Source of the DNA: Thelocarpon superellum
Taxonomy: Eukaryota
Reading direction: 5' to 3'
DNA: 33,909 bases
Assembly (NCBI GenBank): GCA_026025795.1
Contig: JAPEUG010000175.1
Coordinates: 1-33,909, forward strand
The notes under the pieces were generated by a model. That model saw only the letters and a program-made list of their open reading frames with translations. It made no database searches and was not told the DNA's origin. Position 1 is the stretch's first letter. Each line of letters starts with the position of its first letter. A program made the position numbers and the translations under genes. Positions 24,989-33,909 of the stretch are shown piece by piece.

Positions 24989-27496
<2,508 letters not shown>

Positions 27497-28380: not shown

Positions 28381-31182
28381 ATGGCTTCATCTCCGCCCCA
28401 CGATGAACAGACCACAACCTTCTTTGTGGGTCAGCACGAGACCAAACGAGTGCTGCCCGTCACCGGCGCGATGCTGCGCCAAGCACAAGATAGTGGGGTG
28501 AGTGGCGTTTGGCAAGGCGGGCGCGCGTGACGAACCGCAAGCTGATGGAGGAGCAGTATGACATGCTGACGACTCCGGTCACGACCCCTCATTACCACTC
28601 TCGCGTGCTGGCCCTGCTGTCCTCCCATCTCTCGCAACTCGGCGGCGTCGGTAACGGGGCAAGCAAGAAGCCGTCGGCCGCGCCCAAGTTCCCCACCCCC
28701 GTCATTCCACCCCTGAATCCTGTCGACACTCCGCTGTCTCCCTCCTCCACCATCTCGCAGCTCCTGGCCGTCGCCGCACCCTGGACCGATCTGTGCTCCC
28801 CCGACCCGCTGATTGCTGACCTCTCACGCCAAGTGCTTCGCCAGGAGGTGGCGTACGCGGCCTTTTGCGGCATCGGAAACATTATTCTCCCTGCGCCCAA
28901 GCTGCACCATCGTGACGTTCATGGCCGGGGCCTCACGCAGTATGGGCGGGCCGTGCAGGAGAGCCTGGTGGCCGGACCATATCTGGCCATCACCATGCTT
29001 CTGCCCATGACGGACCATCCCGACACGGATCCGGTCGAGGGTGTTGGAAACCTGGCCCCCTTTGCCCGCGAAGACTTCGTCGAGGAGGCCGAAGGTCAAG
29101 AAGGGCGGAGAGCCGACATCTTTGGCACGTGGGACGGGTGGAACCTCATCAGGACCGTGTGTAACTATAGCCCGAGGCTGTTTGTAGGTGAGATGGCGCG
29201 TCAAGAATGCGAAGCTGATCAACCGCTCGACCGCTCAACTTGCCCCCCGTCTCAACATCTCTCCGTGCCCGTCTGGCGATGATGACCACTGCTGATCGTG
29301 GCGGTGACCCACACAGGCCTCAGCATCCCTCGGCACCTCCCTCCAATAGCCGTCCAGAGCCGGTGGTTCTCCGAACCTCTACGTCTGATGGCCTTGGATT
29401 CAACCACTTTTCTGCGAAATAAGAACCACTACCCCGTCCTAGGCAAATCCCACCAAGCGCTCGTAGCGCGATACATGCGGCTGCGCAATAGTCCCTGGAT
29501 TCTCTTGTGTGACGTTGGACCCATCCCCCATAGCACAGGAGCGGGAGATGACGCCTCCACCCCGGTCGATGGCTACCACAGTTCCACGGGCAGTGGTGAC
29601 ACCAGCGGCGGCACGCCTACCCCATCCCCCAAACTGGCCCTCGTCGAGACCAACCGCTCTACGCTCGCTGAGGCCGCAGCAGCAGCGACGGCTGCGGCAC
29701 GAGCATCGCGGCGCTCCTCGACCGCCAGTCCCTTTGAGGATCCGCAGGCGCAAGCACACATCTACGCCCGCGGCGGCACCCCTATCAGCGCCACCAAACC
29801 GCGCAAAGACCCGACGCCGCATCTCAGCTACATTCGATTCCTGTCCCGCTCGCAGCCGGCCCACACCACCATCGAGCGCTTCGGGGCCGGATATCAGGAT
29901 TATTTGCAGGCGCCACTTCAACCACTCACCGACAACCTGGAGAGCATCACATACGAAGTGTTTGAGAAGGATCCGGTCAAGTACGACTGGTATGAGCGAG
30001 CGATGGCGGCGGCCTTGTCCGACTTTGACGACCAGAAGCTCAAAGGATCAGGGCCAAACGGAAAAATCGTGGTGGCTGTCGTGGGTGCTGGCCGAGGGCC
30101 GCTGGTCAATCGTGCGTTGAGAGCCAGCCTCGCCGCGGGGGTCAACATGGAGCTCTGGGCGGTGGAGAAGAACCCAAACGCCTTTGTCCTGCTGCAGCGG
30201 CACAACGAGTCCGACTGGGGCGGGCGTGTCAAGGTGGTAAAGAGCGACATGCGGTCATGGAAGGGACCGCCGCTCCGACCTCAGCCGGCCGTTGACGTTG
30301 ACGACCCGTACGAGAAGAACGGCGTGGACGGCGGATTCGGGCGCGTCGACATCATGGTGTCAGAGCTGCTTGGTTCCTTTGGCGATAACGAACTCTCGCC
30401 GGAATGTCTCGATGGCGTGCAGCACGTCTTACACCCCGAGCACGGCATCTCCATCCCAGCCTCCTACACGGCGCATCTCACCCCCGTTGCCGCACCCCGC
30501 CTTCACACCACCATTAGCTCTCGCGTCGCTGCCGATCCCACTGCCCCGGAAACACCTTACGTAGTGATGCTGCACGCGATCGACTACCTGTCCACGGCAC
30601 CAGTCCATCCAACAGCTTTTTCCCCAACCACCGCGTCCACTTCCTCCCCCGCGCTCCCGCTTCCCCTGGTCCAACAAGCCTGGGAGTTCGCTCATCCCAA
30701 TCCTATCCTTTCGACCCCCCACACTGACAGCCTCGCGTCCAACGCCCACAACACTCGCTTCGCCCACCTACGCTTCCCCTGTGCCGCGCGCGGCTCCTGT
30801 AATGGCGTGGCGGGCTACTTTGAGACGGTGCTCTATAGCCATGTTGAACTCAGCACGCGCCCTGACACCATGGACGCGAAGAGTGCCGACATGATCAGTT
30901 GGTTTCCGATCTATTTTCCTTTGAAGGTGGGTTCGCCTCTTCTCCTCCGCCGTCTTGCCCTACCCTACCCCGTCCTCTGCTAACATGATCCACGCATGCA
31001 CGAAGACACCGCTCTATTTCCCCGACTCTTCCGAACTAGACATCAGTATCTGGCGACAGACAGACGACCGCAAGGTCTGGTACGAGTGGATGGTAGAGGC
31101 GTTTGTGGTGGTAGATGAGCATCGCATCCGTCTTGGCTCCTCGGAATTGCATTCGTCCAAGAAGAATGGGTGCTTGCGATGA
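28381..31182 (+). CDS. PRMT5: Type II protein arginine methyltransferase PRMT5 (Skb1/Hsl7)
   Basis: Exons 28381-28497, 28557-29187, 29317-30926, 31006-31182. QEVAYAAFCG, YQDYLQAPLQPLTDNLESITYEVFEKDPVKY, VVGAGRGPLV, VEKNPNA, VSELLGSFGDNELSPECLDG, SWFPIYFPL, KVWYEW. Confidence 0.96.
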
Positions 31183-31560
31183 TATTAGAGGAGTCCTCCT
31201 TTAACTATCCATTTGATCGAGGAGGTGATTTTGTCGAACACCCCCCTACCCCCTCCACCCAAGCGTTCTCGTTCGTCCCTTTCGCTTGATTCTGGAACGC
31301 CGGCGGCGCAGACTTTGGGCGTGCGCTATGCTTTATAGCAGTCTCCACATGTCAGGATACGAGGTTTCTGGGCTGGTGAGGGACAGGCTCAGCCTGAGGC
31401 TGTTCGTATATACTTACATCCTTCTCCTGACCTTTCGACACATGACCTCTATATCACGGCTCTTCCAATTCCCTCCCCCTCATACACGCTCCCCACTCAT
31501 TCCTCCCACCAACGTACTCCCGTCCATCCACCAACCCGTCGCCGACTCCATCCAACCACC

Positions 31561-31617
31561 CTGTCCCCGTTAGCAACGCTCAAGACCCAGAAAGGACACA
31601 CTCATCTAAAAAAAAAG
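31561..31617 (-). other. Telomerase RNA 3'-processing signals: U-rich Sm-like site plus 45-nt terminal intron with non-canonical 5' splice site
   Basis: Minus strand: CU9AG (31617-31606), then AUGAGU (31605-31600), branch point GCUAAC (31574-31569), 3' splice site CAG (31563-31561). Confidence 0.8.
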
Positions 31618-31888
31618 TAGTGCCGTCCCTTCCCGTCCGCGAAGACGAAGACGAGAAGAGACAGCTGGGGTGCCTCCTCCTCGGCACATGGAGATTCCTT
31701 CCCTCAAATGGCACCTCCGCCACCAATCGACACTTCGATTCGCCCCCGCCGTGGCTCCGTCCGGTTCGAAAGCGTGCTTCTCGTCGCGTGTCCAGCTCCG
31801 ATCTTGTCTCGTTCTGCGTCGCTCGGACGTCTCGCTTTCTCGTCGCGTGAAAGTGCCAGTGGGTTCGTGTCTGGTCGCAAGGGCGATA

Positions 31889-31945
31889 GCAGGAGCAGAC
31901 AAGCACAAAGCTTTGAGCCTCACCCGAGAGAGGTCCCGCTCCTAC
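31889..31945 (-). other. Telomerase RNA CR4/5 three-way junction (P5, P6, P6.1)
   Basis: P5 GUAGGAGCGG/CUGCUCCUGC; P6 GACCUC..GAGGCUC; single A linker; P6.1 AAGC-UUUGU-GCUU; GU linker. Confidence 0.85.
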
Positions 31946-32364
31946 CCATCGTGCAACCCTCATGTCGGGACGTGAGCCGTAGCATTTCCACTCGCTGAGA
32001 TCCCGAGATGGTGTCCGACGCGTCAGAAAGTGGTGAGCGTTAATCAGGGCTGGACATCGAAGATTCACTTCTCGTAGACCGGAGGCTGGTTGGACTGCAA
32101 GAAGAGGCGAATCTTGCGTCGTACGTTGGAAAGGTGATATCATCAGGAGTGGAAATCCTCGGAATTGCTCGTTCTCCGTCTCTCATATCTAATGCCACCC
32201 GGACGGTCCAGGAACATCGCCGCGAGTCGATTTCGTCCTTCCTCGAATCGGTCATCCCTCCAAGATGCTGTCGTCCATGCTGTATTGCACACTCCCCACC
32301 GTCGACCAGGACACCCGAAGGCGCCTGAGATTCTTCTGTCTGTTCGTATTGGCGGTACCCTCAG

Positions 32365-32465
32365 GGACTAGTCTTTGCTTCCTCTTCCGTCGAGCTGCCA
32401 TGGAGATGACACCGTCGAGAAGGGCATTGAAAAGCGGGCAAAGGACATCCTCAAAAACCGCTTTC
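32365..32465 (-). other. Telomerase RNA pseudoknot candidate
   Basis: S1 GAAAGCGG/CCGCUUUU; loop UUUUUGA; S2 GGAUGUCCUUUGC/GCAAAGACUAGUCC (bulged). Confidence 0.72.
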
Positions 32466-33683
32466 GTCTCCATTGAGGAGGTAGACATCCGCTCCGTCTG
32501 TGACGACAGCGTGGATCAAGTGTCGACGCTCACCTGTCAACCCCAGTGCAACCCACAAGAGGAGGCGATTAACGCGGCTGATCGAGACCCCAGCTAGGTC
32601 CCTTCGGACCGAGCCGGGCCACATCGTATGGCTACTGCCTCAACGTGGGTCCGGTGAGGGAGCTTCATCATGAAGATGATACGGATGAGGATTGAGGTGG
32701 ATAGCCGGGCCATAAACAAAGCACCGTGGTGCCCGCGAGGTGGGGAGAAAGGTACGGGACGTCTTCCAGCTGCACCAAGTCCACTCCCGGGTCAACCCAC
32801 AATGAGCCACCGCCCCTTGCGCACCCCAAGACCGAAACCGCTAGACACCTCGGAGTCCCGCACACGGTCCTTCTGAACACAATCGACCATCTCTCGATCC
32901 GTGCCACTCTCTACTCGACCAGATGAAATGAGACGACTGGAACGGACGTCATGCTTGATCTGACCACTCCACACCCGCTTTCCTTGTATGTTCAAAGCCA
33001 TCGGACGTGCTCGTCGCGGTACCAATGATGAAGCGGTGAGCTCCAACAACGAGTACACAACGACGATCACGAGCGATAGCAAAGACAGTGCCACGCTGTA
33101 GCGATGGCGAAAGCAGGCCTGAAGTGTTCTGTTCGTAGGCAAGTATCGTGTGACCGAATCCTGGACGTGTTCATGTCTCATCTCAGCCGGGCAGGAAGAG
33201 AGTGGCAGGGTCGAGAGGGGTTCGGTTATTGAACAAACAGAAGGATCTTGTCACGAGACAGGCCATTCGGCGATTAGGACCCGCAAAGGGGGGTTGCAAA
33301 CAACGACGGCCATCGCAGAGGAACCCGAGAGCGACACGGTCAGCATCAACGGAAGATCCCAAAGGCGGTCCATGGCGAGCCACGTGCCACCCGACCTTTC
33401 TCACCGACTATCGCTCAATGACTTCCTGCCGTGCTCCACATCAACAAGACATCCCAAGATGATCAGAGTATGGTGTCCAGCCATAGACAGCGACGCATTC
33501 TGTTTCAAGAAATGCATGCCATCCATTCTTTGACGCCGAGAGGCTCTGGACGTCAACCTCCCCTTTCGTACCTCTCGCATAGGCTTGGGCAGACGAGGCC
33601 CGTCGCGAATGCAAGGGATTAATCGAGGAGGCGACAACTGTGACGCGAAACTGGTCTTCCGTGGGGAAGAAGTCGACGATAGA

Positions 33684-33692
33684 TTAGGGTTA
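33684..33692 (-). other. Telomerase template 5'-UAACCCUAA-3' (1.5 repeats complementary to TTAGGG)
   Basis: + strand ttagggtta; lies 2 nt downstream (minus sense) of a 15-bp helix. Confidence 0.85.
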
Positions 33693-33909
33693 AGTTCCGA
33701 CACCCATCCTCCCATACCACCACGTCCAAAGTGACATCGCCAGTAGAATCTGTGCATCCGAAGAGACCATGCCATGAGGCTCGTGGGCCAGACTCTACGG
33801 CAGATGCCCGGGTAGATATGGGAGGCTTTGAGGCATCCCGGCACGAGGCAGAGAGATGAGTGCCGGAAGACTATGGGAAGGGCGAGCCGCGGTGTGGTAT
33901 AGCTCCCTC

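Follow-up and report, generated by a model that had tools for sequence, protein, structure and literature searches.

The DNA analyzed here, referred to throughout as the window, is a stretch of 33,909 nucleotides (nt) of contig JAPEUG010000175.1 from Thelocarpon superellum. Read on the minus strand, one end of the window holds a boundary helix, a 9-nt template, a U- and A-rich pseudoknot, a CR4/5 junction, and a U-rich tract followed by a terminal intron. An earlier note on this DNA had proposed that these five elements mark a hidden telomerase RNA (TER) gene on the minus strand, and all five are indeed present at 31606–33909 in the order it gave. Based on their sequences, this region is very probably the TER gene of a filamentous ascomycete, with binding to TERT and use of the template expected from what is known of the family. 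Each sequence and structural hallmark of Pezizomycotina TERs that could be tested was found at the locus, as judged from the letters of the DNA. The gene belongs to a well-described family whose members are rarely annotated in full, and it contains no new kind of element.

Family membership is established with a covariance model. The Rfam model for Ascomycota telomerase RNA (RF02462) matches minus-strand positions 32366–32461 with a score of 54.1 bits, compared with a gathering score of 30 (E ∼7e-14 to 1e-13), which agrees with the family identity that had been proposed. It is the sole Rfam match at gathering level in the whole window; SNORD100 and HOTTIP_1 also gave matches, but with E 3.6–4.3 these fall far under the respective gathering scores and are taken as chance. 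The RF02462 match is partial, spanning model positions 1285–1381 of 1858, and it includes the pseudoknot only. The earlier note had also held that such RNAs diverge too fast for routine annotation to find them. This claim is half right, because the gathering threshold does flag 96 nt, but out of at least 2304 nt nothing beyond these 96 is recognized and blastn against homologous TERs finds only three islands of similarity.

The homologs used for comparison were obtained by scanning metagenome contigs with a pattern taken from the conserved stretch, which matched at least 119 loci. Six among the 119 matches listed carry the downstream AGAGGAA or full pseudoknot signature, and the other 113 are chance matches. 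These six loci amount to three distinct TERs among the matches listed, hereafter L007, L079, and L030; L007 is identical to L027 over 4038/4038 bases, whereas L079 is partly common to the short loci L087 and L118. L030 matches the whole RF02462 model (positions 1–1858) with 676.8 bits, and L007 and L079 score 50.7 and 47.0 bits, respectively. Because L030 aligns from end to end and the window aligns at only 96 of 1858 model positions, the fungus that carries the window is distant from the seed species of the model. The RF02462 match in the window was first read as CR4/5, a reading ruled out by placing the full consensus structure on L030, where positions 1285–1381 form the pseudoknot and CR4/5 lies at ∼1656–1690. 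Contigs from prokaryotes, 596 billion bases in total, gave no match to a stricter pseudoknot pattern.

Covariation and architecture were compared across four sequences (the window, L007, L030, and L079), and the coordinates of the window features are collected in the table. The order and spacing of the elements are common to all four. The (A)AACCCUAA template lies 831–1300 nt upstream of the Rfam-matched stretch, and 539–942 nt downstream of this stretch a U- or pyrimidine-rich tract is followed by AU(A/G)AGU. GCUAAC is located 30–42 nt beyond this hexamer, with YAG soon after. When the window is aligned with its homologs by blastn, the three islands are only 30–144 nt long: the template with its boundary strand (30 nt), the Rfam-matched stretch (97–144 nt), and a block at ∼31892–31944 (43–51 nt). 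Conservation of functional islands amid unalignable sequence is described for Pezizomycotina TERs (Qi et al., PMC3592445).

Table. Features of the window, with RNA features listed from 5′ to 3′ and neighboring protein-coding genes last
Feature	Positions	Strand	Details
Core-enclosing helices, 5′ strands	33878–33890	−	GCGG 33887–33890, GCCCUU 33878–33883; position fits Rfam consensus structure
Template boundary element, 5′ strand	33860–33872	−	UUCCGGCAC 33860–33868; Rfam register adds AGU 33870–33872
Template boundary element, 3′ strand	33693–33703	−	GUGUCGGAA 33695–33703, then CU before template
Template	33684–33692	−	5′-UAACCCUAA-3′; 1.5 repeats, complementary to TTAGGG; UAA...UAA terminal direct repeats
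Long-range helix after template, 5′ strand	33672–33677	−	GUCGAC; homologous to Rfam helix cUGGu/gCCAg
Conserved block	32564–32583	−	GAUCAGCCGCGUUAAUCGCC; in all four TERs and in Rfam consensus (CCAGGCGCAUUAAC)
Long-range helix after template, 3′ strand	32522–32527	−	GUCGAC
Pseudoknot domain	32366–32461	−	RF02462 match
PK1	32458–32461 with 32434–32437	−	GCGG/CCGC
U-rich loop	32451–32457	−	UUUUUGA
PK2	32438–32449 with 32366–32378	−	contains CUUUGC/GCAAAG
PK2.1 hairpin	32419–32424 with 32381–32387	−	inserted within PK2
Core-enclosing helices, 3′ strands	32352–32362	−	GAGGGU 32357–32362, CCGC 32352–32355; directly after PK2
CR4/5 three-way junction	31889–31945	−	third blastn island; fits Rfam hairpins ∼1656–1690
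P5	31938–31945 with 31889–31896	−	8 base pairs
P6	31915–31935	−	6 base pairs with bulge
Junction A between P6 and P6.1	31914	−	
P6.1	31901–31913	−	AAGC-UUUGU-GCUU, 4 base pairs, loop UUUGU
Sm-like pyrimidine/U-rich tract and predicted mature 3′ end	31606–31624	−	GGCACUACUUUUUUUUUAG; same position and make-up in three homologs
Predicted terminal intron, 45 nt	31561–31605	−	5′ splice site AUGAGU 31600–31605; branch GCUAAC 31569–31574; 3′ splice site ACAG 31561–31564
PRMT5 arginine methyltransferase	28494–30983	+	two exon-sized open reading frames; convergent with TER gene; stop ∼620 nt from TER 3′ end
DEAH-box helicase, HA2/OB domains	24989–27496	−	
Kelch-repeat protein	2–1900	−	

The template site reads TAACCCTAA on the minus strand, a sequence that occurs nowhere else in the 33.9 kilobases (kb) on either strand. 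The expected count of this sequence is 0.03, and 3/100 shuffles contain one or more copies. The template is identical to that of Neurospora crassa (PMC3592445), as the earlier note had stated, and it is unpaired in the minimum-free-energy fold of 33684–33895. In this fold, which only 1/200 shuffles equals in stability (z −2.5), the boundary helix closes a long arm. The helix, formed by UUCCGGCAC and GUGUCGGAA, has 9 base pairs (bp) and is separated from the template by 2 nt, which resembles the distance of ∼2 nt in Aspergillus TERs (Kuprys et al., PMC3603654). Its duplex energy is −14.6 kcal/mol when 11-nt windows are used for the 3′ strand and −18.7 kcal/mol with wider windows, a value that was reached by 0/300 shuffles of the 3′ strand. 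Across the four TERs, the core of the helix changes from CCGR/YCGG in three sequences to CCAG/CUGG in L007, and the mean duplex energy is −11.5 kcal/mol for cognate strands versus −8.7 kcal/mol for non-cognate strands. GGAACU immediately precedes the template on its 5′ side in three of the four TERs.

Two further observations concern templates. The template of L007/L027, located ∼1062 nt upstream of the pseudoknot, reads CUAAACCCUAA, with a period of 7 nt (CUAA-ACC-CUAA). Such a template could specify TTTAGGG instead of TTAGGG, or alternatively it could be the 8-nt template AACCCUAA. In addition, a 35-nt contig piece from an RNA library spans the boundary strand and template at window positions 33679–33713 with four differences and diverges on both sides. 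This piece is probably TER sequence of a different fungus from that wood-decay sample.

The pseudoknot has the layout described by Qi et al. (PMC3592445), in which PK2.1 is inserted between the strands of PK2. The pattern common to the four sequences consists of PK1 (NCGG/CCGN), the loop UUUUUGA, and PK2 (GAYGU.YUUUG with CAAAR.ACUAGUC), with PK2.1 between. Standard pairs occupy 82/84 pair cells, and changes on both sides occur in PK1 as well as PK2. For example, the first pair of PK1 is G–C in the window and L007, G–U in L079, and A–U in L030, whereas the first pair of PK2 is either C–G or U–A. In Aspergillus TERs, 3–4 U–A·U triples have been proposed within the pseudoknot (PMC3603654, PMC4299874). 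The run of U residues beside three U–A pairs in the window fits this number, and such triples may form here by analogy.

The CR4/5 domain conforms to its published definition, which calls for a P6.1 stem of 4 bp, a 5-nt NUNGN loop, and a P6/P6.1 unit of 39 nt (PMC3592445), and for an invariant A between P6 and P6.1 (PMC4993307): the 4-bp stem, the NUNGN loop, and the invariant A are all present in the window. In L007, the P6.1 loop has 4 nt. When the four sequences are aligned, 64/72 cells are paired and 8/18 pairs have changed on both sides. This percentage of pairing was reached by 0/500 shuffles, and sliding the partners by 1–3 columns leaves ≤44% paired. Cognate strands of P5 have a mean duplex energy of −15.2 kcal/mol versus −8.5 kcal/mol for non-cognate strands.

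Long-range helices connect the template region with the pseudoknot. The core-enclosing pairings are GCGG/CCGC and GCCCUU/GAGGGU in the window, GCAGU/ACUGC in L079, ACAGU/ACUGU in L007, and GCAC/GUGC in L030. When the 3′ strand is compared with all upstream sequence, its best duplex forms with the homologous site in three of the four TERs (the window, L079, and L007), but not in L030. The mean duplex energy of these helices is −14.6 kcal/mol for cognate versus −10.3 kcal/mol for non-cognate strands. Compensatory changes in the three homologous TERs are seen in the pseudoknot, CR4/5, and core-enclosing helices. The helix that follows the template can also be formed in every one of the four sequences, with differing letters.

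The large insertion between the template and the pseudoknot carries additional conserved blocks. The GAUCAGCCGCGUUAAUCGCC block sits in this insertion ∼35 nt on the 5′ side of the 3′ strand of the post-template helix, and no role is assigned to it in the papers cited. Farther upstream, at window positions ∼33320–33520 of the minus strand, the insertion contains conserved GACGUCCAGAG...GCUGGAC, which might form a helix, as well as UGGGAUGUCUUG and UUUGGGAUCUUC. These blocks are common to L079 and L007, and partly to L030.

At the other end of the gene, the sequence runs from GGCACUACUUUUUUUUUAG through AUGAGU and GCUAAC to ACAG, and the U9 tract ends at position 31606. In L030, the last base covered by the RF02462 model directly precedes AUAAGU; by homology, the mature 3′ end in the window is therefore predicted to be 31606. 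This predicted cleavage site coincides exactly with the gene boundary that the earlier note had placed on this side. The motifs resemble those of Aspergillus TERs, in which a comparable tract reads CGGC3-5U7-12, the 5′ splice site is AUAAGU or AUACGU, and the branch site is GCUAACU (Kuprys et al., PMC3603654). For filamentous fungi, TER 5′ splice sites of the form AUA(A/C)GU are described, and having A as the first base of the intron prevents the second step of splicing (PMC4299874). A second AUGAGU, at 31495–31500 on the minus strand, follows the predicted cleavage site at a distance of 105 nt. This copy is probably irrelevant because it has no U tract before it and no branch motif after it.

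If the gene works like its relatives, then its RNA would be transcribed and bound by TERT, which would copy the single-stranded UAACCCUAA into TTAGGG repeats. [quoted passage not shown] The two core-enclosing helices and the long-range helix would bring the template near a pseudoknot of the triple-helix type that lies ∼1.2 kb downstream in sequence, and the separate CR4/5 junction with P6 and P6.1 would serve as a second TERT-binding domain that stimulates activity. The 3′ end is predicted to be made by the spliceosome, whose first step would cut at the A-first 5′ splice site just after the U-rich Sm-like tract. With the second splicing step blocked, an RNA ending at ∼31606 would be released.

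The RNA data are contigs of one wood-decay metatranscriptome run, in which 0.05 of the sampled words were present. Three small contig pieces from this run fall on the window and give no start, end, or strand, and the stretches they leave uncovered carry no information. A strandless contig of 165 nt with a depth of 2 matches positions 31733–31897 at 164/165 bases. This contig is compatible with transcription of the locus but does not show it.

Several points weigh against the interpretation of this locus as a working TER gene of the proposed structure. The only expression support is the depth-2 contig, which comes from a metatranscriptome that possibly contains DNA. The sequence evidence from this fungus covers the 33.9-kb window, which contains no telomere repeat array. 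The 5′ end has been placed purely by analogy. Because only four sequences were compared, the shuffle and covariation numbers are to be taken as indicative. Among the helices, the core-enclosing control is weak to moderate in the window, where its value was reached by 17/300 shuffles, and it is absent for L030, where 104/300 shuffles reached it. The post-template control is weak as well, at −13.7 kcal/mol for cognate versus −11.7 kcal/mol for non-cognate strands, and 236/300 shuffles reached the value in L007, where the test window partly cut the strand. In addition, RNAalifold favored a local pairing between the core-enclosing 3′ strand and the beginning of the pseudoknot (GCGGUUUU with GAGGGUACCGC). 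This pairing was rejected in favor of the long-range core-enclosing helices because it is broken in L030, whereas the long-range pairing changes on both sides. Finally, the predicted 5′ splice site AUGAGU departs from the described AUA(A/C)GU, with G rather than A or C at position 3. No paper joining AUGAGU with "telomerase RNA" was found in the literature searched, and such 5′ splice-site variants may be included in a survey reported by Qi et al. in 2015.

The location of the 5′ end raises the question of whether the gene is complete. The first core-enclosing strand begins only 19 nt from the window edge, whereas the leader before the core is 195 nt in L030 and 209 positions in the Rfam model, and the minimal core fragment of N. 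crassa starts at nt 225, i.e., after 224 nt (PMC3592445). This difference between 19 nt and leaders of ∼195–224 nt in relatives suggests that the gene is truncated at its 5′ end by the window, and by analogy ∼200 nt are probably missing. Position 33909, which had been given as the end of the gene, is the edge of the window and not a gene end, and the length of ∼2.3 kb that had been proposed stands only as a lower bound: 2304 nt lie within the window, but the RNA is probably ∼2.5 kb long. Alternatively, the gene could be complete, with a start among the 19 nt that precede the core-enclosing helix and a mature RNA of ∼2.29 kb. The TATA-like sequence CTATAC at 33896–33901 would agree with this arrangement, and no functional constraint on leader length is known. 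However, such a start would not leave the window space for the distance between promoter and start, and the relatives argue for a longer leader. L079 and L007 share a conserved block ∼270 nt upstream of their core helices. In L030, the sequence TATAAAA (L030:2543–2549, minus strand of the locus) lies 56–62 nt upstream of the start of the full-length Rfam match and is a plausible promoter element. We therefore consider a complete gene improbable.

The pseudogene reading, in which the locus is a duplicate or otherwise non-functional TER-derived copy and the working gene resides elsewhere in the genome, gains some ground from the restriction of the evidence to the window, from the placement of the leader and promoter outside it, and from the unusual 5′ splice site. 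It is nevertheless very unlikely. All functional elements are intact and pair correctly, including the template, the U and G of L6.1, the junction A, and PK1 and PK2; in the published studies consulted, each species is described with one TER locus (PMC3592445, PMC3603654); and the RNA-library contig matches the locus almost perfectly. The idea that the motifs came together by chance within intergenic or protein-coding sequence and lack TER function can be regarded as effectively refuted. Stop-to-stop frames of up to 200 amino acids do overlap the region, and to this extent the earlier remark that it has no credible open reading frame needs qualification. The remark otherwise holds, since no Pfam family was found in any of the nine open reading frames tested. 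The three longest minus-strand frames, which were the only ones compared, are not conserved: when they were searched against the homologous loci with tblastn, no match fell below E 0.02, and the best one covers 17 amino acids over the conserved RNA block. Chance would also have to account for the E value of the Rfam match, for five collinear elements with compensatory changes in three homologs, and for a pseudoknot pattern without any match among the prokaryotic contigs. A TER gene that is cut at its 5′ end by the window remains the preferred reading.

Among the neighboring protein-coding genes, the convergent PRMT5 gene flanks the TER gene. Its nearest protein clusters are ascomycete. No tblastn match to PRMT5 below E 0.7 was found in the homologous loci, a result that says little about synteny because the flanks of those loci are short.

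Like the TER of N. crassa (NcrTER, 2049 nt; Qi et al. 2013, PMC3592445), the window TER has the same 9-nt template, a boundary helix, two core-enclosing helices, and PK1, PK2, and PK2.1, as well as a CR4/5 domain with a short P6, a P6.1 of 4 bp, and a 5-nt NUNGN loop. In both RNAs the pseudoknot follows the template by >1 kb. Differences from NcrTER include the length, which is at least 2304 nt within the window versus a total of 2049 nt, and the distance of CR4/5 from the 3′ end, which is ∼300 nt here and ∼190 nt in N. crassa when compared by description only. Aspergillus TERs (Kuprys et al. 2013, PMC3603654; Kannan et al. 2015, PMC4299874) share the U-rich Sm-like tract before an A-first 5′ splice site, the GCUAAC(U) branch site, the boundary helix ∼2 nt from the template, and the pseudoknot U and A runs for U–A·U triples. 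They differ in using AUAAGU or AUACGU where the window has AUGAGU.

Vertebrate telomerase RNA likewise has a TTAGGG-type template, a triple-helix pseudoknot, and CR4/5 with P6.1, and both of these domains are required for its activity. In contrast, the window TER is ∼5 times longer, has a boundary helix adjacent to the template rather than a P1 tether only, and lacks an H/ACA 3′ domain, with its 3′ end predicted to come from spliceosomal cleavage. In Schizosaccharomyces pombe TER1, too, the 3′ end is generated by the first splicing step beside an Sm site. However, TER1 has a canonical G-first 5′ splice site and another block to the second step, whereas here the block is expected to come from the A at position 1 (PMC4299874).

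The longest TER known in 2012 was that of M. graminicola, with 2425 nt (Qi et al., PMC3592445). Our extended proposal, to which we give even chances as a whole, is that, given a leader like those of its relatives, the RNA of ∼2.5 kb would exceed this length, that its 3′ end would be made at AUGAGU, a variant that differs from the AUA(A/C)GU sites described for filamentous fungi, and that conserved blocks such as 32564–32583 may be docking sites for new holoenzyme proteins of filamentous fungi.

The current understanding of how telomerase RNAs work is unchanged by the window TER. Together with the three metagenome TERs, it provides diverged sequences whose covariation supports the published helices, and a G at position 3 appears to be tolerated in a predicted 5′ splice site of the cleavage type. 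For the fungus itself, the result adds to the gene map an essential non-coding gene of a kind that protein-centered annotation misses. The locus also offers handles for work on telomeres: the template could be used for marker mutations, the residues of L6.1 and the pseudoknot for loss of function, and the A-first splice site for studies of 3′-end formation.

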